Shown: positions 7,429-63,216 of the stretch, in pieces
How the letters are laid out: each line of letters opens with the position of its first letter
How positions within the stretch are numbered: the stretch's first letter is position 1
Origin: a virus
Taxonomy: Duplodnaviria; Caudoviricetes
Length of the DNA: 64,000 bases
IMG/VR virus record: IMGVR_UViG_3300034093_003299
Coordinates: 22,900 to 86,899 of that record
Reading direction: 5' to 3' (one strand)
Position numbers and translations under genes: made by a program
The notes under the pieces: model-generated
Database searches by the model: none
What the model was told of the DNA's origin: nothing
Seen by the model: the letters and a program-made list of their open reading frames with translations, nothing else

Positions 7429-7439
7429 AGCGTCACAAT
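7412..7439 (+). promoter_or_regulatory. sigma70-like promoter TTGACA-N16-CACAAT
   Basis: TTGACA at 7412-7417 and CACAAT at 7434-7439. The ATG at 7447 follows after 7 nt with no Shine-Dalgarno. Confidence 0.55.
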
Positions 7440-7446
7440 AACCTGT

Positions 7447-11038: not shown

Positions 11039-11039
11039 T
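11012..11039 (+). promoter_or_regulatory. sigma70-like promoter TTGACT-N16-CATAAT
   Basis: TTGACT at 11012-11017 and CATAAT at 11034-11039. An in-frame ATG at 11047 follows after 7 nt. Confidence 0.55.
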
Positions 11040-42190: not shown

Positions 42191-45100
42191 TTATTTCTTG
42201 AAATTCAATGCCGCTGGTCCTAATTTTTTTAACTCTGGGATCTTGTCAAATAATATACTGATAATTCCCTGCATTGCTTCATCAGGAGCATTTTGTATAG
42301 ATGATCTTCCATCAATATTAATAACATTAGAATTAGAAACAGTACTAGAAGACCCGCCCCCGCTCGGGAATGCTGATGTTATTCCAGTCTTTAAAGCTTC
42401 TGTCACAGCATTGGTAAAGTCTCCGGCAGCGAAATTAGGCACAGATCCTTGAGCGTAAGAAGGAGCAAAATTTCTAGGAGCAGACGATCTCATTCTAGAA
42501 TACACATCTCCAGAAGACATCATCCCGTTGCTCATTGCCGCGAAGTTAGGAACTCCGCCGCCAGCTCTTTCCTTCATTACTTGCTCAGCAGGGACTCTTC
42601 TTCTCATGGCTTCTTCTAGAACATCTTTGGGGAAGCCTGTTTCTCTAGTCGCTTGTTCATTTATTTCTGATAAAGATCTGCCTTGAGCAAGCCCTCCTGT
42701 TCTTACATTAGCTTCATCAGCAGTCATAAACCCCCCTCCGAAACCAGCCCTGTCTTGCATGACTCGTTCAGCGCTTTCTCTTCTTCTCGCAGCCTCTTCT
42801 AAAACGTCTTGAGGAAAACTGGGTATTGCCCTGTCTCTGAACTCTATGGCTGATTTAGGAATGACTCGATTAGCTTCTCTGCCAGCTTCTGCTTCTTTTG
42901 CTGTTTTATATATCTCGAAAGACTTAGCGAATCCTGGGTCTTTAAAGTCTGTAGGTTTGAACGATCCAAGACCGTATTGACCCTCTTGCTCTAATAAATA
43001 ATTTGCTTTATCTCTGGTAGTCGTGTAGCCATTAGCTTCCGCATTTTTATCAAAAGACTCAAGGAAAGATTTTCTTAGCTTTGAGCTTCTCGCTTCTTCT
43101 TGCTCGGATGATTCCTTATTTAATCTAGCTGTTTCCGCGTCTCTTATAGCATTACCTCCTGAAATTATACGCGCTATATTAGCTTTACCTTGTTTTTCTA
43201 ATTCCTTTGCGAGTTCTTTTGTTCTTTCTGTCTCTTCGAATTCCTGGCCTCTTTTAGACGCAGACATTTGAAAGTCTCTAGAAACTAATGGATTCCCAGA
43301 TATTTCATTGTACTTATTTAACTCTGCTAGTAGTTCTGCTTTTTTAGCTATTAATTGATTTGATTGAACGGCTTGATTAACAGTCGTTCCGCCTTTTGGT
43401 CTAACTCCAGCCTCGTAACTAGCTTTTGTTGTTCTTAAGCCAGATGCAAAATCGCCTAATTTATTTCCAATGCCTAATTTATTTTCTAAAATATTGCCAG
43501 TTCTATAACCTAAAAGCCCAACCGTGGCTGGCGCGGATCCTATAGCGCCCAATGCTGTTCCTATTGCGTCTCCAATACCAACAGACTCTTCCTCTCCTTT
43601 TCTTCCGAATATATCTTTCCATTCTCTTGCAAGGGTTAAGTCCTTAGTCTCGAAGTCTCCTAATCCGCCTAATATTACTCCCGCTGGACCAGCTACTTTC
43701 CCGACCCCCTTGGACAATCCGGCGAAGCTCGCGGCAGAAGATAACCCAGCCAATGTTGCTTGCCCATATTTCCCTTCTTTAGCTGATGAATAAGACTCAA
43801 GGCCTTGCGCTATTCCGAAACCTACAGATCCCGCTATGCCCAAGCCTTTCAATCCAAATTTTCCTGCTCCTTTAAGTTTATTTAGAACGCCAGAGGTCGC
43901 TGGCGAAGGAGATCCAGGAGGCTTTATTGCGCTAACGGGGCCAGTTGGAGCAGTTCCTGAAGTAGGAGCTGTAGGTTTTTTAGAAAGAAATTTATTTACT
44001 TCTTCAGGAGTGTATTCTTTAAAATTTGTAGCGCCAGCATTTAAATTTATAGTGTCTATATTTTCAATCACGCTTCTTAAATCAGCGCTTCTTCCTTTAG
44101 CGAAAGCTGGCTTCCCATATCTTCTAACCACATCCGATAAGTCAATTTTTTGCCCACTTCTAATTTTATCTGCCGCTTCTTTAGCCAATCGCTTGTTCAG
44201 TTTTGCCTGCTCAGCCTCTGAGAAAGCTTTCATCTCAGCTCTTTGCGGCGCTGTTCTTTCAAAATATCTATTCGCAGCAGCTTGTCTTTCTTGTTGCTGC
44301 GCCAATTTAAAATTCTCTCTGATCGCTTTCTCCAATATACTCTTGCTCTCTTTTTCGCTACCCGCCAAGAAAGCGTCTAAATAAGGATTCTTATTAGGCT
44401 TATTAGGCAGTTTTAAAGAAGGAGTCACTCTTTCAGATTGCATTTTTAGACTCCGAGATCTAATTCGAGTTCTGGTTTCCCCTTGAAGCTCACGGACGCG
44501 ATCGGCTGCCCTGCCCGTTGGCACGTAAGCTTGGTCTCTAAAAGTTACTTGCCCTTTCGGGAGCAAACCTAACGGGGATGTCTTTGTTTTGTTTTTATCA
44601 GAGAAAAGAGTGGATTGGCCCGGGGTAAACACGCCGGCCGCGGGAGTCTCTGTTCTGTTTTTACCAGAGAAAAGAGGTCTAGAAGATTGCCCTCTTGGTA
44701 GCATTTTCAAACCTCCAGATTGTGCGCCAGGTTGAAATTCAGAAGCTTTTTGAGCCAAAAAGGTATTCTGATATGCTGCCATCTGAATGTTTCCAGCTCT
44801 TCGGTTTGATTCAAGCATTCCTCTTTGTATTCTAACTTGCTCTTCTTGAGTTAACTGAAGCGCTTCTTGTAGTCCTGGTCTTTTTAAATAACTAGAAAAT
44901 CCAGAAATAGAACCCTGTGCTAATTGACCTTTTTTCGCTTCTTTAAGAAGCTTGCCCTGCTCTATATTTGCTTTTAATGTTTGCGCGGCAGTCATTTTTT
45001 GTGGCTTAACAGTAGGATTTACATTACCCATGCTTGGCCTGTTCCCGTATGGATAAATCTTGTTAACTAATCTTTCTGGGTAGAAAGGCATCGTTTTTTG

Positions 45101-48100
45101 AGATACTCCTAGAATCGGAGCTGGATCAGAAGGAATAACTGGCTTAGGGGCATCCGCTCTTGGGCCATATATTCTTTCTAGTAATTCTTCCATTCTAGAT
45201 TTAGCGAAATTAGGAACTTTTCCTTTCTTCATCCACTCTGGACTTGGATCAATTAAATCATTTCCTAATCTACTATTATAAGCGTCAGAAGGCTTTGCAA
45301 TATTACTTTTTTCTGGTTTCGCATATAATGAATTATACATGCGGTCAGCAAGATAATCAGTTAAGCCAGCCTTTTCACTCAAAGGCTTAACTATATATTC
45401 TCCTATATCTAATCCTAATCCAGCAGCTCCCAATCCCGCTTTTTTAGCGACATTTTTTGTTAAAAATTTAGCTGCATCTAAAGCTGGCCCAGCTAAATCC
45501 GTAGCTATTCCACCAGCATTTCCCTCTTGAACATTACCAATCAAAGATTGAGCATCATCTGCATTTGTGAACATATTACGAGCTTCATCTAAATTATCAC
45601 GAACTTTATCTAAATTACTCGCGTTCATCCAAGATGGCATTTTCATCCAAGATGGCATTGCGTAATTTGGAACAAATCCACTAGATCTCATTCCTAAACT
45701 TCTTAAGCCATTTTTTTCATCAATGCTATTTGTTACTCCAAAGCCTTGAGGGTTAGAAGCGGTTACTAAATTTGGGCTTCTTTCTAAGTTAATAGATGCC
45801 ATTGCAAAGTTAGGAACTCCCATTATTCCTCTCTTAGCTAGGGCCATTTTTTCTCTAGTTATTGCATCGTTTACAGGATTAGCAAAATTCTTTACAGGTG
45901 GACCGTCGCTCGCTTGAGCAGCGCCAGATTCAGATGCGTTACCCTTTACTTGGCTTGCGACAAGATTTACTACGTCAGCTCGTATGCCTTTATCTCCGAA
46001 AGTGGATTTTAAACTAGCTTCAAAACCGCTAACTAAACCTTGCCCCAGTGCTGTCGCTTGTTCTGTGATTTGTTGCTTTATAGGTACAAGAAGATCTTCC
46101 ACTCGCTTGAGCTCCGAGTCATCTGCTTTGGCTTGCTTAGCAGATTGGACTCCAAATTTTTCGTAATCTTGCATCGAGCTTTTCACTTCTCCTGGCACTT
46201 CTGGACTGCCAAATAAAGCATCGGCTTTCAAACCAGCAGATTCAAAAAGATATTTTGAATCAAAAGCTTTGTTTCTTAATAATCCAGATGTTTGCCCAAG
46301 GCCCATCATTTGAGCCATGTTAGCTCTCTTTAGCAAATCTCTTTGCATGTCCATAGCGTTGAGGCCAGTAAGCTCTCTCTTTACTCCTGATATGTCTGCT
46401 GGTTCTTTACCGTTTTTGGTTTGAAGAAGTCCAGGATATTTTTGCATTGTTTCTGTTAAGAAATCAGTAGCGCCTCCCACCTGAGTTCTTCTAGATCCAA
46501 ATAAAGTTCCTAATTGATAAGTAAGAGGCCCGCGTAACCCAGCAGACATAGACTCTGCTCTCATTTGTGGATTTATAGAAGTCTTAATATCTCCACCAAA
46601 AGCCAATTTCTCTTGTAAAGCTAAAAATTTAAGTTGTATGTTTTTAGTCTCATTAGCTATAGTTCCAGCTTTTTGTATTTCTCTTGTTTGTAAAGAGTTA
46701 AATTGTATTAGTTTTTCTATGCCAGCTACTTGAGCTTTGCTAAGACCAGGAAGTTGTTTTATTGACTCTAAGTCTCTTCCTGTTGCTACACCGGGAGTTT
46801 CTATTGCATTAAGCTTTGCTTGTACTTGAGACGGCAATCCTTTGGTAAATTCTTTGTCAGAAAGTTGCGCTAATAATGAATTTTGAAAAGATACCGAAGA
46901 TTGTGTAGTTTTAATTGCTAAAGAAGCATCAGAAGCGGCTGAAATTCCTGCTCTTTTGCTAAAGCCGCCTGCAAACGAAGCTAATTCTGGCAATTGGTCT
47001 TCTAAAGCTTTACTTATGCTTGATCTTATTTCTCTGCGGTCTTCGGTTTGTTGTTTTTTTCTTGTTAGCGGTTTTGAAACATCAATTATCGCTGCTTCTT
47101 GATTAGAAGAAATTTCGTTTAATTTTTGAGTTAATTTAAGCGCGTCTAAGAAGCCCTTTTTTAATTCATCAGTTTTAAATACATTAGAAAATTCTTCTAC
47201 ATTTAATCCTCCTTTAGAAAGAACTTCAGAAAAATTTGCTGGACCAGCTTTAGACAAGTCTTGCTTTAATAAATCTTGATTTCCCGAATTGATTACAGAT
47301 CTGAAAAATGAATCAAGTTCTTTTGGTGCGTCTTTGCCAAGAATGGTGCCTTTGCTTGAAAACTTTAAAGCTTCTTGTCTTACGGATTGTATTCTTTGGC
47401 TTTCTTTAGCGTTATCTTCAAGGATAGCTTGTTTACCAGCTAGGGTTGTCTCTGAAGCTAATTTAGATACAAGCCCTGGATTAGATCCCTTAACTTTAGA
47501 CAGTAAATCTGCTATACTCGCGGACAACTTTAATATTTGTTTAGGATCAGCTTTTGGATCTCTATAAGCGTCATCTAATTTAGCTAAAGAATTGGAAAGC
47601 TCTAATGTGTTCTCTGTTAAGTCTTGAAATGTTTTTTTAGAACGGTCCAAAGCTTGTTCGAATTTTTTTGTGTTTATTCTATTACCTAAGTCTGCTCCGC
47701 CTTGGAATCCCGCGAGGGTTCCTGCTGTTAATTGCCCTACGCCAGACGCAACCGCTATGCCTCTCTGCGTTTTAGAACCTTTTCCAAAAATTCCTTTGCC
47801 AATATTTTTTAGTCCAATAGCCCCAGGAATAGCAACATTAGCGAATGTCGAAGCTCTGGGGTCAATCAATTCGTTTTCAGCTAATGTATCTAAAGTGCTA
47901 CTAGCGGCAGAGCCGGCAAACAATTCAACACCCGCTGAGATAGGGTTCGCTAGATTATTTCTGCCCTTTAGCAATCCTAATCTTGACAAAACAGTAACCA
48001 GCTGTCTGCTAGGCAGAGCAAAATTTGGTACATCTTTTAGTCCATTAGGCTCGTCTATTTTGTTTGTAACTGCTATAGGATTTCCGCCTCTATCAAAATG

Positions 48101-51100
48101 AGCCATTATCTGAGAAGCCGGGACGCCTCTTTGTGCTAATGCTGTTTTTTCTCTACTTACTGCATCTGATAAGCCAGAAAAATTAGGAATATATCCTCCA
48201 GAGAAGCTATCTTTGTATTCAGCTGGGATATTTTTGATACCAGCAAATTGAGCTAATGTAAAACGATGATTTCCATCTTTAACTTCAGAATAAGAGTCGG
48301 GATAATTTGTTATTTCAATTGGCTCTTGTTTTAAGAAGTTGTATAATTTTAATTTATTTTCTTTTGAGGATAACGCGTCTGTTAAACCTTTTTTATTTAT
48401 ATTATCTAACTCAATCGGGATACCAATACTATTTAATATCTTATGTAAACCTGGGGCCGAAGCTTTATTAGCTTGACCAACATAGCCGCCCATTTTTTTA
48501 ATTTTTTCTGCATTGAAAGTTGATGCAAAATTAGGAATATATCCTTGCGATAATCCTAATAGCTTAGATGCCGCATCTCCTTTTTCGAACCTAAATCCTA
48601 TTGGTAATTTTGCGACTCTTACAGTCCCAAAAAGTTTTTTTGTTTCTTTATCAGATAAGCCTCCTGCTGTCTGAAAAAGTTTTTGTGCATTAACTGGCTC
48701 TATTCTAGACAAAGCTTTTCCATGTATCGCGGCAGGATAAATAGAATGCTGCGAAGACGAAGCTTGAGTTAAGCTTTCTGATCCAAATTCAGCAAGTCTA
48801 CTTATAGAAGATCCGAAATTTTTATTTTTTTGATAAAATTTTAGTATATCAGGTTCAATAAATGGAGAAACAATTTCTCTCATCTTATCGGGCCCTAAAG
48901 TTTTATAAAATTTATCAAACAGAGAAGTTAAGTTAGCAGTAGAAGTGCCTTCTTGAATGAATCTCGAAGTTAACTTAGGATAAGAAGCCTTCAATGCCTC
49001 TACAACCATTTTATTTCCAGCTAAACCTTGTATTAACCCTAAATCTCCTCCCATTCTTCCAGCTTGCGCCCCGAAAATAACTCTAGATCCAGATTCAACA
49101 AAAGGCTTTATGAGTTTAATCATATCATTCGTTTTTTCTTTATTCAAGAAAGCCGCTCCCATCCCGGGTCTTGCGAATGGATATTCAGGCCCGCCTCCGT
49201 GTTCGCCTGATAATGTATCGTATAAAGAAGAAACAAATAGATTAGAACCTTGCCCTACTATTCTTGGATTAGCGAAGTTAGGAATACGCCCAGAGGCGAA
49301 CGAATCGTTTCTTGTGCGTGAACCGACTTGCGTTCTCGCCCACGCCCATGTCCTGGCTTGTAATTCTCTGACTGGTACGCCTAGCTCTTTTGCTGCTGCG
49401 CCGTATTCCTTTACAAGTTTATTATAATATTTATATCCTCCAGCTGATTGACTGAAAACCTTTGATTTTTGCTTTTCTGATACTGCTCCTCTGTCATATT
49501 TTTCTTTTAAAGCTCCACCATTTCTTACGTATATAGCCCAACTGTCCATTACAGATGGAGTATTTAGTGGATTTTTATATTTACCAAATCCAGAAAAGTT
49601 TTTAGATAACAATAGACTCTGAGCAAAATTTTGAGTCTTAGCGCCTTTCCCCAATATAGACATTAACTCTTCCGTAGACCCAGAAGAAGCTAGCATTTTT
49701 TTTACTTTTTCTATGTTTTCAGGAAGCAATACTAAATCATCATAAGGTTGATTATTGGCAATCCTCTGTATGCCTTTTCTAGCAGCAGAATCCGCAGTGT
49801 TACCTGATAAGGCAGCCAAACCATAAGCTAATTTTTCTAAACTAGCGCCAGAAGAAGCGGATAAGTTTTTTAATTCAGAATTAACATTCGGATAATAGTT
49901 TTCATTTTTTTGCGCTGCGTTAAATCTTATTGGATCTTTTTCGGTTAAAGATGCTTTATAAGAATCAATTATATTTTGAATAAATTTAGATTTAGCAAAA
50001 TTAGGAACATATCCTTGGTTTAAAAAAGTAGGCCCATAAGCAAATTCATCTTTATACCCTAATTTAGATAAGCCTTTAGTTCTTTTTTTAGCCAAATCAG
50101 CATTCAATCCGAAAACCCCAGTATCAACGATATTGATTTCTCCGCCTTTTTTTGCTATAGAAGTTAAAATTCTATCCATTTGAGCTTCGCTCTCTTCGAA
50201 GTCTTTTGATTCTATTGATTTGATTAGTTTACCATAATTTCTTCTGAGAACTTTAGATAAAATAGTCTCAGATTTTTCATTAAACATTAAATTATCATAC
50301 TTGCCAACCAAATCGTCAGCTTTCATTCTGCCGCCCATATCTATTTGCATTTGGGCTCTACCAGCTATTAAATTGTAAAACTTATCAAAGCCTTGTCTTT
50401 CTCCAGTGTATGGATCCAAATCTAAGGCTAAATCTTTGCCTGTTTTGCCAGCTATTACTTTTTTATAAATAGAACTTTTTTGTATAGATTTTTCTAAAGA
50501 TCCATAAATTTCAGGAGTCTTAAATATTGGATTTAATTGTCCAGCGCCGATCATCTGCCCCAACTCTTGAGCGGCTACATATTCATTGGCAACGTTGGTT
50601 TTAGTTCTATTTGACTTTGGATCAAAAAAATCTTTCCTTCCCAAAGAACCTCTTAGCCCGAAAAATTCTCCGAAAAATCCTCCTCCTAAACGTTGTTTTG
50701 CAAAATTAGGAATATATCCTTTAGCGTAAGAAAAGTCTTCTCTATTTCCAGATATCGCTTCTTTTATAAAAACAGTATTTCCAATTTGGATAGCTTGCTG
50801 GCCGCCTACTATTGGTTTTTTTGTTTTTCTATCGTAATAATAAGAGTGTCTGTCTGGGTTGTATCCTACTTGAGTCCAATTTTTTAAATCTTTAGGCAAA
50901 GATTGATCTTTAGATAAAGTACCTGATATTTTTAATAATGGACTTTTTTCTTTTCCTGCTCCTATGTTTAAGGAGGCCCTTTCTAAGCCAGCAGACTTAC
51001 CCATTGATGGATTATCAAATGCAACAAATGAATCGTAAGATTTAAATCCTCCAGAGCTTTCTGTTTTCACTACTCCCACTCCTTTTCTTGTCATTGAAGG

Positions 51101-53314
51101 AACATCTTGGCGCACAGTTATTTCGCTTCCCGCAGGCAGCTCTGATAATTTATTTGCTCTTTTTGCTTGCTCTTTATCTAATGCGTTTTTAATCAAAGCC
51201 TGACTAGGTAAATCTTTTACGGAAGAAGGAGCTATTACTTCTCTTATCGGAATGTCTCTTTCTATTAAAGCATCTAGTAAATCTCTATCTATTTTTTCTC
51301 CAGTCTGGAGTTTTTGCAACATTGCTCTGGCTTCTGGAGAATACATGCGGCCAGCTTTGATTGCAGCTTTGCTTTGCGGATATTTTATCAAAAAGTCTTT
51401 GGGCATTTTATTGCTCTTAGACCAAGCGAAATTAGGAATGTATCCTTTAGACATTCTTGGTATTTCATCAAGATTTCTGTAATTAGGAATTATTGCTGTT
51501 TCTCCAGTTCCTCCATAATTTGGAATTATTTTTTCTTTATCGTTTACAATTACAGGGCCAGTTTTGCCTTGGATTGTGGCTTGAACTACTTCCGCTTTCG
51601 GATTAACAGCGCCCATTCTTCTAGCTGTGTTTTCTTCTAATTGGAAAGCCGCTGCTTCTACGCCCGTGTCAGGAATATAGCCCTCAGCGAATAGTCTTCC
51701 TATTCCTTTTCTAGAGGCTTTCTGGGCTGTGCTTACGGTAGAAGTGACTCTTCCCGTTATTCTAGATTGAGTTAAAAGAGATCTATTTTGTTCTTGAATT
51801 AGCCTCAATACCTCTGCTTCGGCTTGCGCTAAATTCATTTTGCGACTTATGACGCTATCAATTATCGCAGGATTCTCTCTTAAGGTATCGTTAATTCTTT
51901 TTTGTATTTGTAATTCTTTTTCAGAAGTAAACATTTCGGAGCTAGCTCTCCCCAACTGCTTTAATGAGCTCACTCCGAATTTAGCAAATTTTGCAGCCAG
52001 CAACCCTCCTGTAGCGGCTAAAATTGGTAAGCCACCTGCCCCTAAAGTTTTTCCTAATATCGAAGCCGCGCCTTTGCGTAGCCCATCGGCAAATTTTTTG
52101 CCAGAGTCTTCTCCTTGACCAAATAAATCAGAATTTGGACTTACTAATTTTAAAAGAACCTCTGAAACTGTGCTACCCAATTTAACTAATGGATCTAGCA
52201 AAGATGATCCTAGCGCAGCGGCAGCTTCTTGAGCGGATGTTTTAGTCTGCTGCAATACAGCAGACAGGCTTTTATTTAATTCTTCGTTCTTCTTTTTCGC
52301 TTCGTCTGTCGCGGCGCTGGAAACTCTTAAAGCATCAGCATAAACGCTATTAGAACTAGAAAGATCTTTAATTAAAGCATTTACTTGGTTAATCTGGTAA
52401 ATGCCACCAACTAGTTCTGCTGTTCTTGATTTTTCTGTTTGACTTAAATTTTTTGTAGCGTCAGAATAATTTTTTAAGATACTTATGCCATCTAATAGAT
52501 ATCCATTTTGGTCTTTAACTGCGACTCCTAACATCTCAAGCTGACTCAATACTTCTGGTCTTTGTAAGCGAGTAAATATTGTTTTTAAAGCGTTACCAAT
52601 TACAGCGCCGCCGCGTCCAGTTATTTGCTGTGCAGCAGTGACTGTCGCTATTAGCTTATCGATGCTTAGACCGCTTTCCTCAGCAGAGCTACCCACGCGC
52701 GAGAGGGCTTCGTTCAACTGAGCGGAACTAACAGCAAATCTTGTATCAACAGCGATTAACTTGTTAGTAATATCTTCCGAAGTCAAAGCTTCTTTATTAA
52801 AACTGTTAATTGCTGTAGTTATACCATTTACAGCTTGTGCATAACTAATACCAGCTATTCTTGCTAGGGTTAGGGCACTTCCTGTTCTTTTTAATATTTC
52901 ATTAGCAGAAAGACCTTGTCTTGCGAACTCTTTCGCGGCTTCGGCAGCGGCTTCGAATGGAACTGCCGAGTTTTTGGCTACTTTAAATAAAGACTGAGAA
53001 AAACCTTCTAATTCATTTCTTGATTTGCCTAGATATGTATTTAATTCTACTAATTGTTTATCTACTTCTATAGTAGCTTTAGCGCCTTCTCTAATAGCTT
53101 GAGAAACTTTATAAATAGCTCCAGCAGTTAAACCGAAAGCTGTAACGCGAGCAGTGGCTGCTGATAATGATTTGGTGAACTCCGCTGCGTCTCCGCTGAT
53201 TCTTCCAAGAGGCTGAGCAAATTTTGCAGAACCGATAGCTGCCGTGAAGCTATTAAAAGACGCTTGCGCCGGAGCAGTATTTAAAGTAAGATTGGCTTGA
53301 ATATTCGTTGGCAT
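42191..53314 (-). CDS. Tail tape measure protein (PhageMin_Tail/TP901-type N-terminus) carrying internal enzyme-like cassettes
   Basis: 3707 aa. The N-terminal core (EAAKEFARQGLS..E...AL.LA...V.GIT.AINSF...NKL.AVD..FAVSS..L.EAL.R.GS.A...G.......G..IGNALKTIF.RL) is a classic TMP. Gene lies after the major tail protein and chaperones. AAGGA Shine-Dalgarno upstream. Confidence 0.92.
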   Translation of the reverse strand: MPTNIQANLTLNTAPAQASFNSFTAAIGSAKFAQPLGRISGDAAEFTKSLSAATARVTAFGLTAGAIYKVSQAIREGAKATIEVDKQLVELNTYLGKSRNELEGFSQSLFKVAKNSAVPFEAAAEAAKEFARQGLSANEILKRTGSALTLARIAGISYAQAVNGITTAINSFNKEALTSEDITNKLIAVDTRFAVSSAQLNEALSRVGSSAEESGLSIDKLIATVTAAQQITGRGGAVIGNALKTIFTRLQRPEVLSQLEMLGVAVKDQNGYLLDGISILKNYSDATKNLSQTEKSRTAELVGGIYQINQVNALIKDLSSSNSVYADALRVSSAATDEAKKKNEELNKSLSAVLQQTKTSAQEAAAALGSSLLDPLVKLGSTVSEVLLKLVSPNSDLFGQGEDSGKKFADGLRKGAASILGKTLGAGGLPILAATGGLLAAKFAKFGVSSLKQLGRASSEMFTSEKELQIQKRINDTLRENPAIIDSVISRKMNLAQAEAEVLRLIQEQNRSLLTQSRITGRVTSTVSTAQKASRKGIGRLFAEGYIPDTGVEAAAFQLEENTARRMGAVNPKAEVVQATIQGKTGPVIVNDKEKIIPNYGGTGETAIIPNYRNLDEIPRMSKGYIPNFAWSKSNKMPKDFLIKYPQSKAAIKAGRMYSPEARAMLQKLQTGEKIDRDLLDALIERDIPIREVIAPSSVKDLPSQALIKNALDKEQAKRANKLSELPAGSEITVRQDVPSMTRKGVGVVKTESSGGFKSYDSFVAFDNPSMGKSAGLERASLNIGAGKEKSPLLKISGTLSKDQSLPKDLKNWTQVGYNPDRHSYYYDRKTKKPIVGGQQAIQIGNTVFIKEAISGNREDFSYAKGYIPNFAKQRLGGGFFGEFFGLRGSLGRKDFFDPKSNRTKTNVANEYVAAQELGQMIGAGQLNPIFKTPEIYGSLEKSIQKSSIYKKVIAGKTGKDLALDLDPYTGERQGFDKFYNLIAGRAQMQIDMGGRMKADDLVGKYDNLMFNEKSETILSKVLRRNYGKLIKSIESKDFEESEAQMDRILTSIAKKGGEINIVDTGVFGLNADLAKKRTKGLSKLGYKDEFAYGPTFLNQGYVPNFAKSKFIQNIIDSYKASLTEKDPIRFNAAQKNENYYPNVNSELKNLSASSGASLEKLAYGLAALSGNTADSAARKGIQRIANNQPYDDLVLLPENIEKVKKMLASSGSTEELMSILGKGAKTQNFAQSLLLSKNFSGFGKYKNPLNTPSVMDSWAIYVRNGGALKEKYDRGAVSEKQKSKVFSQSAGGYKYYNKLVKEYGAAAKELGVPVRELQARTWAWARTQVGSRTRNDSFASGRIPNFANPRIVGQGSNLFVSSLYDTLSGEHGGGPEYPFARPGMGAAFLNKEKTNDMIKLIKPFVESGSRVIFGAQAGRMGGDLGLIQGLAGNKMVVEALKASYPKLTSRFIQEGTSTANLTSLFDKFYKTLGPDKMREIVSPFIEPDILKFYQKNKNFGSSISRLAEFGSESLTQASSSQHSIYPAAIHGKALSRIEPVNAQKLFQTAGGLSDKETKKLFGTVRVAKLPIGFRFEKGDAASKLLGLSQGYIPNFASTFNAEKIKKMGGYVGQANKASAPGLHKILNSIGIPIELDNINKKGLTDALSSKENKLKLYNFLKQEPIEITNYPDSYSEVKDGNHRFTLAQFAGIKNIPAEYKDSFSGGYIPNFSGLSDAVSREKTALAQRGVPASQIMAHFDRGGNPIAVTNKIDEPNGLKDVPNFALPSRQLVTVLSRLGLLKGRNNLANPISAGVELFAGSAASSTLDTLAENELIDPRASTFANVAIPGAIGLKNIGKGIFGKGSKTQRGIAVASGVGQLTAGTLAGFQGGADLGNRINTKKFEQALDRSKKTFQDLTENTLELSNSLAKLDDAYRDPKADPKQILKLSASIADLLSKVKGSNPGLVSKLASETTLAGKQAILEDNAKESQRIQSVRQEALKFSSKGTILGKDAPKELDSFFRSVINSGNQDLLKQDLSKAGPANFSEVLSKGGLNVEEFSNVFKTDELKKGFLDALKLTQKLNEISSNQEAAIIDVSKPLTRKKQQTEDRREIRSSISKALEDQLPELASFAGGFSKRAGISAASDASLAIKTTQSSVSFQNSLLAQLSDKEFTKGLPSQVQAKLNAIETPGVATGRDLESIKQLPGLSKAQVAGIEKLIQFNSLQTREIQKAGTIANETKNIQLKFLALQEKLAFGGDIKTSINPQMRAESMSAGLRGPLTYQLGTLFGSRRTQVGGATDFLTETMQKYPGLLQTKNGKEPADISGVKRELTGLNAMDMQRDLLKRANMAQMMGLGQTSGLLRNKAFDSKYLFESAGLKADALFGSPEVPGEVKSSMQDYEKFGVQSAKQAKADDSELKRVEDLLVPIKQQITEQATALGQGLVSGFEASLKSTFGDKGIRADVVNLVASQVKGNASESGAAQASDGPPVKNFANPVNDAITREKMALAKRGIMGVPNFAMASINLERSPNLVTASNPQGFGVTNSIDEKNGLRSLGMRSSGFVPNYAMPSWMKMPSWMNASNLDKVRDNLDEARNMFTNADDAQSLIGNVQEGNAGGIATDLAGPALDAAKFLTKNVAKKAGLGAAGLGLDIGEYIVKPLSEKAGLTDYLADRMYNSLYAKPEKSNIAKPSDAYNSRLGNDLIDPSPEWMKKGKVPNFAKSRMEELLERIYGPRADAPKPVIPSDPAPILGVSQKTMPFYPERLVNKIYPYGNRPSMGNVNPTVKPQKMTAAQTLKANIEQGKLLKEAKKGQLAQGSISGFSSYLKRPGLQEALQLTQEEQVRIQRGMLESNRRAGNIQMAAYQNTFLAQKASEFQPGAQSGGLKMLPRGQSSRPLFSGKNRTETPAAGVFTPGQSTLFSDKNKTKTSPLGLLPKGQVTFRDQAYVPTGRAADRVRELQGETRTRIRSRSLKMQSERVTPSLKLPNKPNKNPYLDAFLAGSEKESKSILEKAIRENFKLAQQQERQAAANRYFERTAPQRAEMKAFSEAEQAKLNKRLAKEAADKIRSGQKIDLSDVVRRYGKPAFAKGRSADLRSVIENIDTINLNAGATNFKEYTPEEVNKFLSKKPTAPTSGTAPTGPVSAIKPPGSPSPATSGVLNKLKGAGKFGLKGLGIAGSVGFGIAQGLESYSSAKEGKYGQATLAGLSSAASFAGLSKGVGKVAGPAGVILGGLGDFETKDLTLAREWKDIFGRKGEEESVGIGDAIGTALGAIGSAPATVGLLGYRTGNILENKLGIGNKLGDFASGLRTTKASYEAGVRPKGGTTVNQAVQSNQLIAKKAELLAELNKYNEISGNPLVSRDFQMSASKRGQEFEETERTKELAKELEKQGKANIARIISGGNAIRDAETARLNKESSEQEEARSSKLRKSFLESFDKNAEANGYTTTRDKANYLLEQEGQYGLGSFKPTDFKDPGFAKSFEIYKTAKEAEAGREANRVIPKSAIEFRDRAIPSFPQDVLEEAARRRESAERVMQDRAGFGGGFMTADEANVRTGGLAQGRSLSEINEQATRETGFPKDVLEEAMRRRVPAEQVMKERAGGGVPNFAAMSNGMMSSGDVYSRMRSSAPRNFAPSYAQGSVPNFAAGDFTNAVTEALKTGITSAFPSGGGSSSTVSNSNVINIDGRSSIQNAPDEAMQGIISILFDKIPELKKLGPAALNFKK
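42429..51445 (-). repeat. Dispersed in-frame repeat G-x-[IV]-P-N-[FY]-[AS] (about 12 copies) in the TMP
   Basis: + strand copies of about gcaaaattaggaatatatcc start at 51426, 50700, 49995, 49272, 48525, 48177, 48018, 45804, 45660, 45204, 42540 and 42429. Weaker xxNFA variants occur near 45882 and 42465. Confidence 0.9.
45624..45659. repeat. Perfect 18-bp tandem duplication (MPSWMK-MPSWMN)
   Basis: ttcatccaagatggcatt occurs twice, at 45624-45641 and 45642-45659. Confidence 0.95.
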
Positions 53315-53333: not shown

Positions 53334-53340
53334 ATTACAC
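53334..53340 (-). promoter_or_regulatory. GTGTAAT late-promoter-like motif
   Basis: attacac on the + strand. Lies 19 nt upstream of the TMP ATG with AAGGA in between. Confidence 0.5.
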
Positions 53341-54335
53341 TATAATCCATGCATTTTGATAAAGTCTTCTGTTGTAAGCTTGTTGCCTTTTTTAGCTGCA
53401 ATTTCATTTAAGGTCACAGCCTTTCCTCCGGCCATTTTTTCCAGCTCTTCTCTTGTTGCTCCTGTATATCCAACTCCGCTAGATTGACCAGATGAGTTCC
53501 CAGTTCTTGCTGAGCTTTCTACAGATTCGTACCATTCTACCATCTTGTCTGGATCTGAAACGACATCTGAAGGAGGATTACTCTGGGCTTGGCTTTCTAT
53601 CAAAGATTTAAAATATCTAGCTTGAGAAAATAAATTTACTTGCAATATTGTCAAATCTTTAGTATATTTACCAAAAAAACTATAAGCACTATTATCACAC
53701 AAAGCAAAAAGACTCATAAAAAAAGAAGAAGCGCAGATTCTTTTAATATTTTCGTAATCGAATCTAGTGTAAAAATTTCCCAATATGTCTACCAAATTCG
53801 ACAACTCTTTCGGCGACAAATCGTCAAACTCTTCTTGAGTAAAAAATTTCTCTTTAAAATCCTGGTCTTTGTAGAACGATAAATGAATAATTAACTCATT
53901 AAGTTTTTTGCCGGTATAGTCTTCAGCGCAAAATCCTAATAGGTCAGCTTTCTCATTTTCTAAATTTAAGAGAGATTTTTTTAGGCCTTTGATCTTGTTC
54001 TTGGCTTCATTGATTTGCCTTTTTATTATAAGATTTCTTATTAGCATTTCAGTGTCAGAAATCTGCTTGGAAATTTGATCTATATCTTTTTCTTTTTCGT
54101 TAGACCAAAGTTGATTTTTTATTAAAAAACTTAGCTTCTCTTCTTTCTCTTCTAGTCCTTTTTCCAAGGCTTCTCCGCTGAAAAATCTTCTGTTTTTATC
54201 TAAATCGCCATTCTCTAATTCTGTGAAATGTTTAATGAAAATAGGCTTTTCCAAGAATTTATCCTCAGAAAAGCCCACTGCTATTTCTTTATACAAGCCT
54301 TTATAAAAACTTATTTTTTCATAAAGATCACTCAC
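53340..54335 (-). CDS. Tail assembly chaperone-like protein
   Basis: 331 aa (GTG start) directly upstream of the TMP. Central coiled coil. Paralogous to 54342-55055. Confidence 0.6.
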   Translation of the reverse strand: MSDLYEKISFYKGLYKEIAVGFSEDKFLEKPIFIKHFTELENGDLDKNRRFFSGEALEKGLEEKEEKLSFLIKNQLWSNEKEKDIDQISKQISDTEMLIRNLIIKRQINEAKNKIKGLKKSLLNLENEKADLLGFCAEDYTGKKLNELIIHLSFYKDQDFKEKFFTQEEFDDLSPKELSNLVDILGNFYTRFDYENIKRICASSFFMSLFALCDNSAYSFFGKYTKDLTILQVNLFSQARYFKSLIESQAQSNPPSDVVSDPDKMVEWYESVESSARTGNSSGQSSGVGYTGATREELEKMAGGKAVTLNEIAAKKGNKLTTEDFIKMHGL

Positions 54336-54341
54336 AGATTA

Positions 54342-55055
54342 TTAACCAATCAGGTCTTCTTTTGGCACCCCAGAGTTTAGTTGGCCGATAAGGAAACCAC
54401 CCTTCTCTACAACACTACTCAAGAATTCGTCTTCCGACTCTTCTATCTGAGAAAGCTTTTGAAGTTTCTGTTCAAATGATCCATCTCCAAACAAACAAGT
54501 TTGAGAACCTTCTTCTCCTTGATAAAGTAAATTCAATACAAACCACAAATTCAAAGCGTCAGAAGCTCTCTTTTCTGCCGTGTTATCAAATAGAGAGTTT
54601 TGCACGTTTTCATAATCGAAAATCTTTTGGCGCAAGATCTGATATTCGGGATTCAGATTGCCATTCTTCAATTCTCTTTCTGCTTCGCTAAGCGTAGAAT
54701 CTTGCTTTGTTTTTTCTAAATCTATTTCTATAGCTATAGCTTTGGAGTAATTTTCTGCGTGGGCCTTCTTCTCGTCTTCAGAAGCTAAAATTCCGTCTTG
54801 CTGGAATTTGCGTAAAAGGTAATTTTTAGTAACTAGCCCAAGCTTAATTCCTTCAGAAACCTTTACGGCGTAGAAGATGCTTGCTTCGTCTTGTATTTTA
54901 CGGTTTGGTTTTAAAATATAAAACTTCTGAGGGACTTTCTTCTCTACTTCTTTAGTGATCTGAAGCTCTTCTCCAGCTTCGTTTACTTCTGTTGTAGTTT
55001 CTTTTACCTTTTGAGTTTTTTGTACTTCAAAATTATGTAGCCATTTTTCTTTCAT
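54342..55055 (-). CDS. Tail assembly chaperone-like protein
   Basis: 237 aa between the major tail gene and the TMP. Acidic and helical/coiled-coil. Confidence 0.6.
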   Translation of the reverse strand: MKEKWLHNFEVQKTQKVKETTTEVNEAGEELQITKEVEKKVPQKFYILKPNRKIQDEASIFYAVKVSEGIKLGLVTKNYLLRKFQQDGILASEDEKKAHAENYSKAIAIEIDLEKTKQDSTLSEAERELKNGNLNPEYQILRQKIFDYENVQNSLFDNTAEKRASDALNLWFVLNLLYQGEEGSQTCLFGDGSFEQKLQKLSQIEESEDEFLSSVVEKGGFLIGQLNSGVPKEDLIG

Positions 55056-58618: not shown

Positions 58619-59500
58619 TCAAATTATAACATTCAAATGAGCAACATTACTCAAGACTTCCCCAGCAGCATTATATACTTTAACCGTATAATCTCCGGCT
58701 TGATTCTCTTGCAAATCTGATAAATTATATCCTGCCCAGACAACTCCAGAAATCTCAGAACCATTAAGCATCCATTGGTAAGATGGAGTCGGGTATCCCG
58801 TCGCCATTACACTAAATATAAATGAAGATCCAGTAACGGCTTCTCCTCCTACTGGTTGATCTACTATCACTGGAACAACTGGCGGAGCAACAGAAATTTG
58901 GCATCCAGAACTCGTAACTGAGCCCAAAGAGTTTGATACTACAACATCATAGAGCCCAGCTTGATCTAGTTGTATGTTTAAAATTTGTAATCCGTCTCCA
59001 TTCACTCCTGATAGATTTTCAGAATCTTTTCTCCATTGATAATTTAGAGGTTGCCCAGCGGCCATTAATGACACATAGATATTCTGCCCAGACCATAAAG
59101 AAATGCCAGATTGAGGCTGTATTGTAATGGACGGGGCAATGACTGGAAATATATCAGCAGGCCAAGGAGACGGAGGAGTTACAACCGGAGGATTAATTTG
59201 GTTGACTATTTGTTGAATTGATGAGTTTTCAAATCTTTCTTTATCTCCAGATTGAAAAACCGAATAAACCCAATTAAACACTTGATTTTCCTGCAAGTCA
59301 AGGTAAGGGGTAACTGTCCCAGAATACGCTGGAATACTAGTTACGCTATAAACTCTACCGTAGTATGGCCCGCCGCTTACGCCATTATAATAAGACAAGC
59401 AGTCCCAGTGGACATTAAACACATAATCGGTTGCGCCGCTGAACTCAGGGTAGCAGTCCATTGCTGTTACTTTCCACTTTAGTTGCATGTCTTCGCTCAT
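58619..59500 (-). CDS. Virion surface protein with two immunoglobulin (I-set-like) domains
   Basis: 293 aa. PSITIQP...LNYQWRKD...GLYDVVVSNSLGSVTS and PVIVDQP...YQWMLNG...GDYTVKVYNAAGEVLS. The N-terminal domain is a common small phage domain ending PPVVTPPSPW. Confidence 0.8.
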   Translation of the reverse strand: MSEDMQLKWKVTAMDCYPEFSGATDYVFNVHWDCLSYYNGVSGGPYYGRVYSVTSIPAYSGTVTPYLDLQENQVFNWVYSVFQSGDKERFENSSIQQIVNQINPPVVTPPSPWPADIFPVIAPSITIQPQSGISLWSGQNIYVSLMAAGQPLNYQWRKDSENLSGVNGDGLQILNIQLDQAGLYDVVVSNSLGSVTSSGCQISVAPPVVPVIVDQPVGGEAVTGSSFIFSVMATGYPTPSYQWMLNGSEISGVVWAGYNLSDLQENQAGDYTVKVYNAAGEVLSNVAHLNVII

Positions 59501-59523
59501 AGTTTTGTTATTATATAAAATTT

Positions 59524-59530
59524 ATTACAC
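59524..59530 (-). promoter_or_regulatory. GTGTAAT late-promoter-like motif
   Basis: attacac on the + strand, intergenic, 23 nt upstream of ATG 59500. A TATAAT also lies at 59510-59515. Confidence 0.45.
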
Positions 59531-59550
59531 TGTTTAAAATGATTTGGGCG

Positions 59551-61554
59551 TTATAATCCAAATCTTCCTTTTGTGGCATTGTAATTTTGTGTAATTTCTG
59601 TAACGGAAAGCGCCCGGTTATACATTTTTAACATTGCACATTTACCATTCACCATGTAACTACCATAACCACTAATTCTTATATCTCCAGCGGTATTATC
59701 GAATATCACACCATTAGTTGAACCTATGTTTACATTATTTAAATAAAGTTTATTTATTGTTCCGTCAGACGTTGCTACTATATTGTTCCAAGAATTTAAT
59801 GTAAAACCCGGACCTGATGTAAGACCCGCGTTAGGATTTTTATTGTAGCGTATTAAACCATTCAAATCTGACCACACTTCAAAACCACTGCTTGATTGAT
59901 ATACAAATACGGACCCCCCAACATCATATGCATTAATATATACCCAAATATCAATAGTTGCTGCTGTAAAATTTATATCAGGGATTGATACATAATCATT
60001 CGTGCCATCAAATACAATAGCGCCACCAACATCAGAACTATAAGTTGGTCCATTTGTTAATGTTCCATTATTACTATTTCCACTTACATCATAAAATGTT
60101 GTACCTGATCCAGCATAACTATATATATTACCAGCATCAAGATTTAATACTAATCCTTGTTGTACAATTGTATTTGCAAATTTTGACTTTTGAGCTTCGT
60201 AATTTTGAGATATTTCTGTTGCACTTAATGCTCTGCTGTATATTAATGTATTACTAATATTACCATCTAATGGCCTTCCATCTCCATAAAATCCATCTGG
60301 AGAATATCCTATATAATAATTTTGAGTTGTTCCTATGCTAGTAAAATTACTTGTTTGAGTACTTCCACCATTTTGTGATCCATTTATATATAATTTCCAG
60401 CCAGAACCATCTACTGTTACTACAAAATTTTGCCATGTATTTGCGACGACTACCGCAGATGAATATCCATCAGGAGACCAAGTATTGCTTGATCTAACTG
60501 CCCAATGTAATTGAGAATTTTCTATTTCAAAAATTATTTGATTTGCGGAATCTTTTGAAGATTTAAAAAGCATACCTTTTGTTGTCAATGTTTTAAGATA
60601 TGCCCAAATTGATATTGTAAATGTGGAAAAAGATGAAAATGAATTTGATGTTAAAATTGAATAATCATTTGAACCATCAAATTTTAAAGATCCTTTATTA
60701 TAAAAATCATAAAGCGGCATATTTGCGACATTTTGACTACCTGATGCCCCACCAAATGATCCATTATTATTATTGTTACTCAAATCAATTATACTTCTAT
60801 CAGTATTTGATATACCCCATTTTTGTCCAAGATATGTGTGAACTTGTTTCATTTCTGTAGAACTTAATGCTCTATTAAAAATAAGGATTTCCGCAATTTC
60901 GCCGCTCCAATATTCTCCGCTTGATGAACCTGTATAATACGCACCCACTCTATAGCCTCTTGTATTTGTTAATGATCTTGAATTACTTGTTTGAGAAGAT
61001 CCATTTAAATACAATGTTTCTGACCCAACAGATGAAACATTTGTAGAAAACAAGTACCAGACATTTAAAGATATTGGATTGGAAGTATAAACATTAGACC
61101 AATTACCAAGTTTTCCAGAAGAAGCTTGTTGATATAAATAAATATCAGCACTTTGAGCAGCAGTTGTAGATGTAATAATATCTCTTTCGCCAGTCGCCGA
61201 TGATTTAACTATAGTAAACGCAGTGTAACCATTTGCAAGAGTCAAAGCGCTGGTCCCATCTAAAAAATCATTTGTGCCGTCAAAATTTACAGTTTTTCTA
61301 CTATTTTGGAACGTACTTCTACTTGGTTGATTTCCAACAGTTGCTTGCGATGAATGATTATTTAATCCACTTTTGTCTCTCCATTGACTCACTATATTTC
61401 CAGAGCTATAACTAAAAGTAGAGTCATCGGCAGCGTCAAGCCAAAGCAACAATCCCCCTTTCACAGGCAAATCAGTTGGATATGATTTATTTTGTGATGC
61501 ATCTAAACACATCACTAAACTATCCGTAATAATTTTGGGGCTATATTGTAGCAT
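59551..61554 (-). CDS. LamG/concanavalin-A-like adhesin with three lectin-like domains (one nested)
   Basis: 667 aa. LxLDA...DxSGNxNNG starts and IYxRALSxxEIxQNYxAxKxRF ends. An LLLWLDAAD...YLGQKWGI domain is inserted in the first LamG. Confidence 0.85.
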   Translation of the reverse strand: MLQYSPKIITDSLVMCLDASQNKSYPTDLPVKGGLLLWLDAADDSTFSYSSGNIVSQWRDKSGLNNHSSQATVGNQPSRSTFQNSRKTVNFDGTNDFLDGTSALTLANGYTAFTIVKSSATGERDIITSTTAAQSADIYLYQQASSGKLGNWSNVYTSNPISLNVWYLFSTNVSSVGSETLYLNGSSQTSNSRSLTNTRGYRVGAYYTGSSSGEYWSGEIAEILIFNRALSSTEMKQVHTYLGQKWGISNTDRSIIDLSNNNNNGSFGGASGSQNVANMPLYDFYNKGSLKFDGSNDYSILTSNSFSSFSTFTISIWAYLKTLTTKGMLFKSSKDSANQIIFEIENSQLHWAVRSSNTWSPDGYSSAVVVANTWQNFVVTVDGSGWKLYINGSQNGGSTQTSNFTSIGTTQNYYIGYSPDGFYGDGRPLDGNISNTLIYSRALSATEISQNYEAQKSKFANTIVQQGLVLNLDAGNIYSYAGSGTTFYDVSGNSNNGTLTNGPTYSSDVGGAIVFDGTNDYVSIPDINFTAATIDIWVYINAYDVGGSVFVYQSSSGFEVWSDLNGLIRYNKNPNAGLTSGPGFTLNSWNNIVATSDGTINKLYLNNVNIGSTNGVIFDNTAGDIRISGYGSYMVNGKCAMLKMYNRALSVTEITQNYNATKGRFGL

Positions 61555-61569
61555 TTTATTCCTTTATAA

Positions 61570-63216
61570 TTATAATTCGAATCTTGTTTTTGTTGCTTGA
61601 AAATTTTGAGATATTTCTGCGGCTGATAAAGCTCTGTTATATGCTCTAGCGCTAGCTACATGTCCGCCAAAAGCTTTATAATTAACAGTCCCTCCGGCAT
61701 CAATTTGAGATTTTGATATTCCTATATTGCCAGCAGATGGAGTTAAAGAAGAATCATATGGCAATGTTGCAGTAGCAACTGAACTAAATAAAGTTCCATT
61801 TATAAAAAGAGATATAGTTCCTCCGCCAATATTTACTAAAACACAATGATACCATAGATTTAATGAAAAGTTATATCCAGAAGTATTCCTATACGCATCG
61901 GCTCCTCTAATAAATCCAAATAAATTAAAAGCATTTCCTGAAGCATTTCCACTCCAATAAAGCGCCACTCCGCTATAATAAGTCGCACCCATTAATACTC
62001 CGGCTTGAGTTGTTATTCCAGATGCATTTGCAGCTAAAGCTGCTGGATATGCTGTAATTTTTGCCCAAGTTTCAAATGTAAAATTAGAAGAAGCTGGAAA
62101 ATTAGTAAGAGGAAGATTCGTAGTTATTTCATCATCCGATCCATCAAATAAAATATTTCCTTTATTAGAAGTATCAAATGTAGGACCATTTGTTAATGTT
62201 CCATTATATCCATTACCACTCAAATCTACAAAAAATGCGCCTGTAACAAAAGTCCCGCTGCTAGTAAATGTATGGACTGTTTCAGTGCCTACCGTAGTAA
62301 CTGTTCCGCCAGTTGCTTTTTGTGGTCCTTTATAACGAATTATAACAATGCCAGAGCCACCATCGCCGCCTTTGTTATTTGAGTTATAATGACTGCCGCC
62401 GCCGCCGCCACCTCCAGTATTTGCTCCTGCATTGCCGCCGGGAGTATTTGCCCATGAATTGGGACTGCCACCACCACCAGCAGAACCGTTATTTAAACCA
62501 GCGCCGCCAGTTGTGATTCCAACCGCGCCACCACCACCACCGCCAATACCACCATCACCACCGGATGATAATGAATATGCAGAACCACCGCCACCACCAC
62601 CAAAATAATATTGACTCATCGTTGGATAAAGTACACCGGGGCCTCCATTTGGTTTATTTGGTCCTGAAACACCAACCCCTCCTGCACCACCACCACCACC
62701 AGAATAATACTGCCCACTACTTGAACCGCCATTAAATCCTTGTCCAGCAGATCCAGTACCAGCCCTTCCTGTACTTCCGTCACTATATCCAGATGCACCA
62801 CCACCACTTCCGCCAGGACCACCATATCCATTATTAGGTGAATATCCGAAATAAGAACTACCACCATATCCACCACCAGTCGCCGTAATTGATCCAAATA
62901 CACTGTTTCCACCTTGAGTTGCTGAAATATTATATTGATGTCCTGTATTTTGTCCATTTGTTCCTGCGGCTGGCGCTCCTGTTCCTCCATTTCCAACAGT
63001 AACTGTAATCGTCGATCCTCTAGTTATTGCGTAAGACGAACTATAAATCACACCACCGCCACCGCCACCTCCACCCATATCCATACCACCCCCGCCGCCG
63101 CCAGCGACAACTAATACTTCAGCTTTAATTGGACCATACGAATTTGCACTCGATGCATCCAAATCTAAAACCAATCCACTCCTAACTATTTGCGGCCCAT
63201 TATTTACTGTACTCAT
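61570..63216 (-). CDS. LamG adhesin with inserted glycine-rich domain
   Basis: 548 aa. GLVLDLDASSANSY, then the phage glycine-rich domain (VLVVAGGGGGG...GGSGIVIIRY...VHTFTSSGTF), then DLSGNGYNGTLTNGP and a LamG ending RALSAAEISQNFQATKTRF. Confidence 0.85.
   Translation of the reverse strand: MSTVNNGPQIVRSGLVLDLDASSANSYGPIKAEVLVVAGGGGGGMDMGGGGGGGGVIYSSSYAITRGSTITVTVGNGGTGAPAAGTNGQNTGHQYNISATQGGNSVFGSITATGGGYGGSSYFGYSPNNGYGGPGGSGGGASGYSDGSTGRAGTGSAGQGFNGGSSSGQYYSGGGGGAGGVGVSGPNKPNGGPGVLYPTMSQYYFGGGGGGSAYSLSSGGDGGIGGGGGGAVGITTGGAGLNNGSAGGGGSPNSWANTPGGNAGANTGGGGGGGSHYNSNNKGGDGGSGIVIIRYKGPQKATGGTVTTVGTETVHTFTSSGTFVTGAFFVDLSGNGYNGTLTNGPTFDTSNKGNILFDGSDDEITTNLPLTNFPASSNFTFETWAKITAYPAALAANASGITTQAGVLMGATYYSGVALYWSGNASGNAFNLFGFIRGADAYRNTSGYNFSLNLWYHCVLVNIGGGTISLFINGTLFSSVATATLPYDSSLTPSAGNIGISKSQIDAGGTVNYKAFGGHVASARAYNRALSAAEISQNFQATKTRFEL

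Follow-up and report, generated by a model that had tools for sequence, protein, structure and literature searches.

Results

A tape measure protein with modules fenced by one peptide

The tape measure protein (TMP) encoded in a 64,000-nucleotide stretch of DNA from an uncultured virus of the Caudoviricetes (IMG/VR record IMGVR_UViG_3300034093_003299, positions 22,900 to 86,899; the whole stretch is referred to below as the window, and its numbering is used throughout) contains an array of mutually unrelated modules, or cassettes, separated by copies of one short peptide. Comparison with related phages indicates that recombination at copies of this motif exchanges, adds and deletes modules. 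Modules that are fenced by the same peptide and swapped exactly there point to a tail that probably also delivers ready-made proteins into the host, and we lean towards the view that the cassette array is cargo.

The gene is a minus-strand open reading frame (ORF) of 3,707 amino acids (aa) at 42191-53314. A preliminary description of this DNA had called its product a TMP, and family matches bear this out. Within the N-terminal core (N-core; aa 1-596, 51527-53314, minus strand), the Pfam family PF10145 (PhageMin_Tail) matches residues 115-299 with 93 bits (cut-off 33.2; E 2.9e-26), and residues 1-623 match 15 PHROG families, 14 of which are labelled TMP, the best being phrog_4211 at E 4e-47. 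Judged by its sequence, the ORF is the TMP of an uncultured long-tailed phage. Related TMPs share 32-63% identity with it in the N-core.

The TMP carries 14 copies of a motif of the type [AS]-x-G-[YF]-[IV]-P-N-F-[AS], scored as [VI]PN[FY] (residues 597, 609, 626, 868, 1103, 1344, 1593, 1709, 1762, 2500, 2548, 2700, 3588 and 3625), and none was found in the other real ORFs of the window. The DNA pattern GGNNNNRTNCCNAAYTTY (G-x-[IV]-P-N-F) has nine matches in the window, all of them on the minus strand and within the TMP ORF; approximately 0.06 matches would be expected by chance, and none of 100 shuffles reached nine. Six copies of the form G-[YR]-[IV]-P-N-F-[AS], beginning at residues 624, 866, 1101, 1342, 1591 and 1707 and starting at nt 51428, 50702, 49997, 49274, 48527 and 48179, delimit the array. 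The preliminary description had reported these six in-frame copies, spaced 726, 705, 723, 747 and 348 nt apart; the spacings were reproduced exactly, but as a total for the protein the count was too low.

On the minus strand, the array copies found by the motif scan are copy 1 (GYIPNFA, aa 624-630, 51425-51445), copy 2 (aa 866-872, 50699-50719), copy 3 (aa 1101-1107, 49994-50014), copy 4 (GRIPNFA, aa 1342-1348, 49271-49291), copy 5 (aa 1591-1597, 48524-48544) and copy 6 (GYIPNFS, aa 1707-1713, 48176-48196). They bound five segments: S1 (aa 631-865), S2 (aa 873-1100), S3 (aa 1108-1341), S4 (aa 1349-1590) and S5 (aa 1598-1706). BLASTP detects no relationship among these segments (best E 0.053), which agrees with the earlier claim that the motif delimits unrelated modules. 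Aromatic residues (F+Y+W) make up 9.5% of S1-S5 and 5.5% of the rest of the TMP, and the composition of the cassettes is globular, not coiled-coil.

A consensus drawn from 109 distinct motif instances in 15 related proteins reads: hydrophobic or R, [AS], x, G (91/109), [YFL], [VI], P, N, [FY], [AS] (93/109). The motif is retained in TMPs whose N-cores are merely 32-40% identical, and its codons differ between copies within the window gene (ATT/GTT/GTG/GTA, CCT/CCA, AAT/AAC and TTT/TTC); the peptide is therefore under selection. Several copies in the window gene nevertheless have 18-21 identical bases in common. In both structure models described below the motif falls in linkers of low predicted local distance difference test (pLDDT) score, and it behaves as a short linear motif rather than a fold element. 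Outside the TMP clade, more than 100 giant proteins have copies of S1 that lack the motif fence (0-1 chance matches each), and the motif therefore belongs to the TMP scaffold and not to the domains.

Exchange of cassettes at the motif

Two relatives, L001 and L002, have flanking genes 97-98% identical to those of the window across 5-10 kb. At the DNA level, the window and L002 are 98.8% identical over TMP aa 1-871, lack homology over aa 872-1705, and are 95.7% identical over aa 1706-2704. Motif copies lie at each of the break points: copy 2 (866-872) is the left breakpoint and copy 6 (1707-1713) the right breakpoint of the block that differs, and the next break falls at the motif copy of aa 2700 (2698-2704; 45206-45217, minus strand). 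The gap corresponds to S2-S5 in the window and, in L002, to three different cassettes (183, 248 and 258 aa). In L001, S3 alone (aa 1108-1344) is replaced within the array, by a 248-aa cassette, with copy 3 (1101-1107) as the left breakpoint and copy 4 (1342-1348) as the right; homology breaks again at the motif of aa 2548. The TMPs of the three near-identical phages are 3,707, 3,531 and 3,453 aa long.

A scan of IMG/VR with an N-core profile identified at least 529 contigs that encode a related TMP N-core. We sampled this clade through 80 fetched loci and 12 proteins, which gave 90 distinct TMP sequences, and counted motif-bounded segments of 100-600 aa. The 220 segments fall into 86 families, 55 of which are singletons; individual TMPs have 0-8 segments, and the families sit at varying ordinal positions. 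The preliminary description had proposed that cassettes are exchangeable, and the homologous TMPs are indeed not collinear: cassettes have been gained, lost, swapped and reordered at the motif. In one relative (P0002) the array order is c6, S4, u143, S1; in another (P0004) two segments without a family (478 and 196 aa) are followed by S3 and S1; and a third (P0013) has nine motif-bounded segments of 182-417 aa, three S2-like ones among them.

Two cassettes elsewhere in the clade gave Pfam matches below the curated cut-off. A 576-aa cassette (L040:12435-14162) matches the GHKL ATPase family HATPase_c at E 3.8e-5 (24.2 bits), and a 157-aa cassette (L052:13709-14179) matches GNAT at E 0.0018 (19 bits). 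We also noted a lambda-like TMP of 2,442 aa (L008:3001-10329) that has one DUF7178 module and a single degenerate PNF motif, with gpM, gpL and gpK downstream. Therefore, cargo insertion into TMPs seems to extend more widely than the motif-fenced clade.

A kinase-like cassette

Cassette S2 (aa 873-1100; 50015-50698, minus strand) is, by its conserved residues and predicted fold, a minimal protein-kinase-like domain: it has the bilobal kinase fold, and its catalytic residues are intact. Nine residues (G7, G10, K22, E39, D129, L130, N136, D192 and G194) are invariant in six S2 sequences that are 29-36% identical, and their pattern is that of a Gly-rich loop, beta3 Lys, alphaC Glu, catalytic D-L...N and Mg-binding V-D-x-G. 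The model of S2 has pLDDT 75-90. All 50 rows listed by Foldseek are kinase folds, spanning protein, small-molecule and atypical kinases, with small atypical kinases in the lead and PRPK/Bud32 as the best row (E 7.7e-3, probability 1.0, TMt 0.46). All 50 rows from VIA are likewise kinase folds, including BRAF (Z 8.3, root-mean-square deviation (rmsd) 4.2 over 141 residues) and Rio2 (Z 8.2, rmsd 3.8 over 151 residues). Searching PDB sequences with an S2 profile gave weak kinase rows alone (E 0.04-1.2). The label "kinase-like" in the preliminary description is thus upheld by the catalytic residues together with the fold; its broader description of the cassettes as enzyme-like is demonstrably borne out for one of the five, S2.

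S2 and S3 were modelled from collinear alignment rows, and the whole array (1,143 residues) was modelled with S2 or S3 rows excluded. Separate folding alignments were used because multi-cassette alignments made with MAFFT misplaced single-cassette rows onto the wrong cassette. Searches of PDB folds with the 1,143-residue model returned just weak long-helical matches from low-confidence regions and were uninformative on the folds of S1, S4 and S5. The whole array has no match among PDB sequences, and an NCBIfam scan gave no match on any cassette. A word-index search for proteins of similar length (125-424 aa) found no free-standing homologues of S2, S3 or S4, and an ESM Atlas search for S2 and S4 gave no usable result.

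The other cassettes and the closing module

S1 (aa 631-865; 50720-51424, minus strand) is the best-modelled cassette, with helices in its N-terminal part followed by a beta-rich core, at pLDDT mostly 88-97. The core is related to the Pfam family Phage_L5_gp82 (PF25735), which is matched by five of 14 S1 family members (best E 2.2e-8; the window S1 itself, E 0.11) and touches just the C-terminal core. The S1 family has invariant R, D, K and H residues (R112, D114, K167 and H200 in the numbering of the family alignment). In BFVD, S1 matches large uncultured-phage proteins annotated as ART-PolyVal-like, Zeta toxin, tail lysozyme and LT_GEWL (E 1e-14 to 4e-10), and small proteins of Bacillus, Streptomyces and Mycobacterium phages match its core (TMt 0.44-0.74). 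A search of all databases found 939 representative proteins at E <=1e-3, mostly with S1 inside chains of 1,500-6,200 aa, and giant proteins that lack the motif carry S1 together with DUF7178. A profile of S1 has no match among PDB sequences. As an observation in its own right, S1 is a very large unannotated domain family, frequently present as two tandem copies in one protein of 1,500-6,200 aa.

S3 (aa 1108-1341; 49292-49993, minus strand) is mostly helical and belongs to DUF7178 / phrog_3842. The match to DUF7178 (PF23802) covers profile positions 14-191 of 193 at E 4.9e-10, and its 40.1 bits exceed the Pfam gathering score of 27, confirming the DUF7178 part of the label "DUF7178/HhH-like" first given to this cassette; its HhH-like part is putative, the model of S3 being poor. 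The match to phrog_3842 has E 5e-8. S4 (aa 1349-1590; 48545-49270, minus strand) contains a conserved SLYD..GGGPEYP block and occurs inside long proteins only; no known relative was found in the searches made.

S5 (aa 1598-1706; 48197-48523, minus strand) is a small domain with a DGNHR motif, for which a reading as ParB is weak. The "ParB-like" label of the preliminary description was not confirmed: a Pfam scan taken to E 1 gave nothing for the window S5, one of seven S5 homologues matches Pfam ParB_N weakly (E 0.007), and comparison of the S5 family with P1 DdrB by hhalign showed no similarity (probability 0.3%). An S5 profile found no ParB among PDB sequences. The best row there is a spectrin chain that shares DGNHR at a non-significant E of 0.17, and DGNHR is therefore not specific to ParB. 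About 40 residues alone of the S5 model reach pLDDT 74-82, and low-confidence helices swamped the fold searches of the array model.

Motif splitting and similarity place one further module at the end of the array. This module, c0 (aa 1714-1766, 53 aa; 48017-48175, minus strand), ends in VPNF, and a c0-type module of 50-78 aa closes the array in nine of 11 full-length relatives split at the motif. A second c0-like module (aa 2481-2552; 45659-45874, minus strand), which c0 resembles at E 5.7e-8, has motif copies at aa 2500 and 2548, the latter being the breakpoint against L001. The remaining motif copies in the protein are two of the form IIPNY before the array (aa 597-600 and 609-612; 51479-51526, minus strand) and two close to the C-terminus (aa 3588 and 3625; 42431-42553, minus strand).

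Residue composition

Cysteine is absent from all 3,707 residues of the TMP, in comparison with 0.92% in the other 29 ORFs of the window (P ~1e-15), and it is also absent from 12 related TMPs and from six giant proteins that bear S1. Avoidance of cysteine would suit proteins that have to pass, unfolded, along a narrow channel and across an oxidising compartment. Histidine is scarce as well, with seven residues in 3,707 aa (0.19%, against 0.84% in neighbouring ORFs), and all seven lie in the cassette array. Elsewhere in the window, a divergent left block of ten genes (99-11739, plus strand) has a cysteine content of 1.0-3.4%, compared with 0-1.1% in the structural block.

Gene context of the tape measure protein

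Directly upstream of the TMP, two genes of 331 and 237 aa (53340-55055, minus strand) occupy the position of tail assembly chaperones by gene order; family scans gave no match for either. The same two-gene arrangement precedes the TMP in every relative examined, and nine relatives keep the order of tube-position gene, two chaperone-position genes, TMP and large distal tail genes. In one relative there is a faint tube-protein match two genes upstream of the TMP, and in the more distant L008 the TMP lies within a lambda-like module with gpM, gpL and gpK. Family scans named almost none of the genes that neighbour the window TMP, and gene order is therefore the main local support for a tail module.

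Downstream of the TMP (12000-42175, minus strand), genes of 630, 608, 596, 1158, 461, 193, 1086, 3232, 925 and 1155 aa lie in structural position. Pfam scans of the products of 630, 608, 596 and 1158 aa gave no match, nor did a PHROGs scan of the 630-aa one; the 3,232-aa product is almost the size of the TMP. Further along (58619-63216, minus strand), a 293-aa protein matches tail and Hoc-like Ig-domain PHROGs at E 1e-24, and proteins of 667 and 548 aa match phrog_8510, "virion structural protein", in separate stretches.

Discussion

We suggest that the region just behind the conserved N-terminal core of the TMP scaffold probably serves as a cargo slot. The slot would hold a string of independently folding modules, each followed by a motif in a flexible linker, with a module of about 50 aa closing the string; the modules come from the same pool of domains as polyvalent proteins, which are known from phages and other mobile elements. 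During ejection, TMPs exit the tail. We infer that the TMP is present in the virion and that it would leave ahead of the DNA, its cysteine-free modules crossing the envelope with it, either unfolded or compact; once in the host, the modules would refold and, with any enzyme activity they may have, act on their targets there from the first moments of infection. The preliminary description had likewise envisaged delivery at infection, for host takeover or anti-defence, and had put the tail near 550 nm, or near 390 nm if the array does not act as ruler; such roles and lengths are conjectural. The motif could be a processing site or a docking site for the tube or a chaperone, and its DNA may additionally act as microhomology for exchange. 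We see it as possible, if doubtful, that the PNF peptide is specifically a processing site, cut by a protease or by Asn-driven self-cleavage, and that the TMP is a polyprotein that would free up to eight exchangeable effectors ahead of the DNA. Asn-based self-cleavage occurs in some viral capsid proteins, and the invariant Asn of the motif could support a similar reaction here.

A clear precedent for such a protein is provided by the polyvalent proteins (Iyer, Burroughs, Anand, de Souza, Aravind 2017, PMC5512222), giants of phages and conjugative elements in which several effector-type domains, unrelated to one another, are joined in one chain. Among the domains described there are a minimal kinase that lacks the C-terminal subdomain, from phages of Bacteroidetes and Verrucomicrobia, and domains of the ParB and GNAT types; the study proposes cassette-like recombinational variability and, for processing, an embedded zincin-like metallopeptidase (MPTase). 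S2, at about 225 aa, fits the minimal kinase; the window TMP likewise has several unrelated modules in one giant phage protein, and it shares S1 with the ART-PolyVal-like and Zeta toxin entries of BFVD. However, PMC5512222 makes no mention of tape measure proteins, the PNF fence and exact exchange at that fence are absent from it, and no zincin-like peptidase was found in the window TMP. A 2,525-aa protein with S1 and DUF7178, lacking both the motif and cysteine, is encoded in an island between cinA and lepA in a bacterial chromosome. Thus, these domains form a shared mobile-element pool, as in polyvalent proteins. The island itself (L010:5029-16619, identical in L011) is an odd minimal mobile element of approximately 12 kb built around that one giant protein. 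It also encodes a phage-type integrase, a CHAP peptidoglycan hydrolase and a handful of small genes, and neither capsid nor tail genes can be seen in it.

Enzymes within tail rulers are also known. The 5,002-aa TMP of Thermus phage P23-45, gp96, has a virion RNA polymerase fused into its N-terminal part; this polymerase is active and, 5 min into infection, is located on the phage DNA (Chaban et al. 2024, PMC10770324). As in gp96, where an enzyme that acts in the cytoplasm occupies the N-proximal part of a giant TMP, the window array adjoins the N-core. In contrast, gp96 has one fixed enzyme, with no exchangeable array and no repeated fencing motif reported, and its metallopeptidase and membrane domains, which are typical of TMPs, were not detected in the window TMP. 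TMPs with muralytic domains, such as P1 Sit (annotated "structural injection transglycosylase; putative tail ruler"), similarly place a catalytic domain inside the tail ruler for delivery at infection; those domains are fixed and act on the cell wall, whereas the window modules are of intracellular type (kinase), numerous and exchangeable. Finally, the TMP of phage T5, pb2, is cut at a defined site that separates an enzymatic domain from the ruler, both parts remaining in the tail (Linares et al. 2023, PMC10038345). The pb2 site, ...NSFVPR|AEGG, has F-V-P and then A in common with G-F-V-P-N-F-A, a likeness of merely 3-4 residues; unlike the window TMP, in which cleavage would be at repeated sites, pb2 has a single site, a muralytic domain and no PN[FY] motif. 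Polyvalent proteins, TMP-fused enzymes and TMP cleavage are therefore each already known. The preliminary description had known of no account of such an architecture, and our literature search likewise found no description of an exchangeable motif-fenced cassette array inside a TMP, although gp96 and the polyvalent proteins are clear precedents for its parts.

Several points weigh against reading the array as delivered cargo. A tube lumen of about 4 nm would be too narrow for three copies of folded 25-kDa domains, and the model therefore requires an unfolded or staggered state. Only S2 of the five cassettes was identified as an enzyme fold, and its scores are middling (Foldseek E above 1e-3, VIA Z about 8), though the rows are unanimous; the models of S3, S4 and S5 are poor. 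When 20 further cassettes of the clade were searched against Pfam, one DUF7178 scored above the curated cut-off and no other family did. No peptidase domain was found in Pfam, PHROGs and NCBIfam scans of the whole TMP; one could hide in cassettes without a family match. In addition, a tblastn search of the array against 50,697 phage records, representing cultured phages, gave no match.

The modules might instead be ruler material, with swaps tuning tail length and the motif providing a periodic contact for the tube or for assembly chaperones. The motif does belong to the TMP scaffold, since S1 lacks it in the giants outside the clade; two long stretches that are not cassettes, of 738 and 888 aa, are bounded by it as well, and the near-identical phages differ in TMP length, as given above. 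We nevertheless consider this explanation unlikely, given that the kinase catalytic residues are invariant across copies of such low identity, that the same domains occur in proteins of tail-less elements such as the L010 integrase island, that 86 unrelated families exceed the variety a spacer needs, and that the composition of the cassettes is globular. Less probable again is the idea that the motif matters as DNA only, a microhomology of about 20 nt, GGATATATTCCTAATTTTGC, acting as the recombination site while the peptide is a neutral linker. The long runs of identical bases shared by several copies would suit it, as would the fact that homology between the near-identical phages stops within a few bases of motif copies, but retention of the peptide between diverged TMPs and the varied codons within one gene point to selection at the protein level. 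A role for the motif as DNA and one as peptide do not exclude each other.

Two further explanations question the object itself. The ORF could be a polyvalent protein that is packaged in the head or is otherwise internal, with a TMP-like N-terminus, and not a tail ruler at all; its neighbours are almost without family matches, and the case for a tail module comes mainly from gene order. We judge this very improbable, in that the ORF is the sole TMP-like gene of the structural block and holds the TMP position in every relative examined, including the gpM/gpL/gpK module of L008 and the relative with a faint tube match. Hardly credible is that the cassette mosaics are assembly chimeras. All of the data do come from metagenome assemblies; however, the architecture recurs in independent assemblies from IMG/VR, JGI, ENA and Logan, reading frames are open across every junction, and the breakpoints lie at one peptide motif.

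If the modules are delivered, as the cargo reading proposes, the tail lumen of a large phage clade would be a second cargo route beside the capsid, and the set of cargo would be rewritten by recombination at one short peptide. Such a route would account for those TMPs that greatly exceed the length required. It would also imply a large pool of uncharacterised early-acting phage proteins, with 86 families in 90 TMPs and one Pfam match above the cut-off among those scanned, and would offer a defined insertion site at which to study which proteins can pass a phage tail. The window, L001 and L002 form a natural experiment in this respect, being the same phage with different cassettes. Moreover, if the TMP is a polyprotein, the array would be a natural plug-and-play slot for protein delivery, common to hundreds of uncultured phages.

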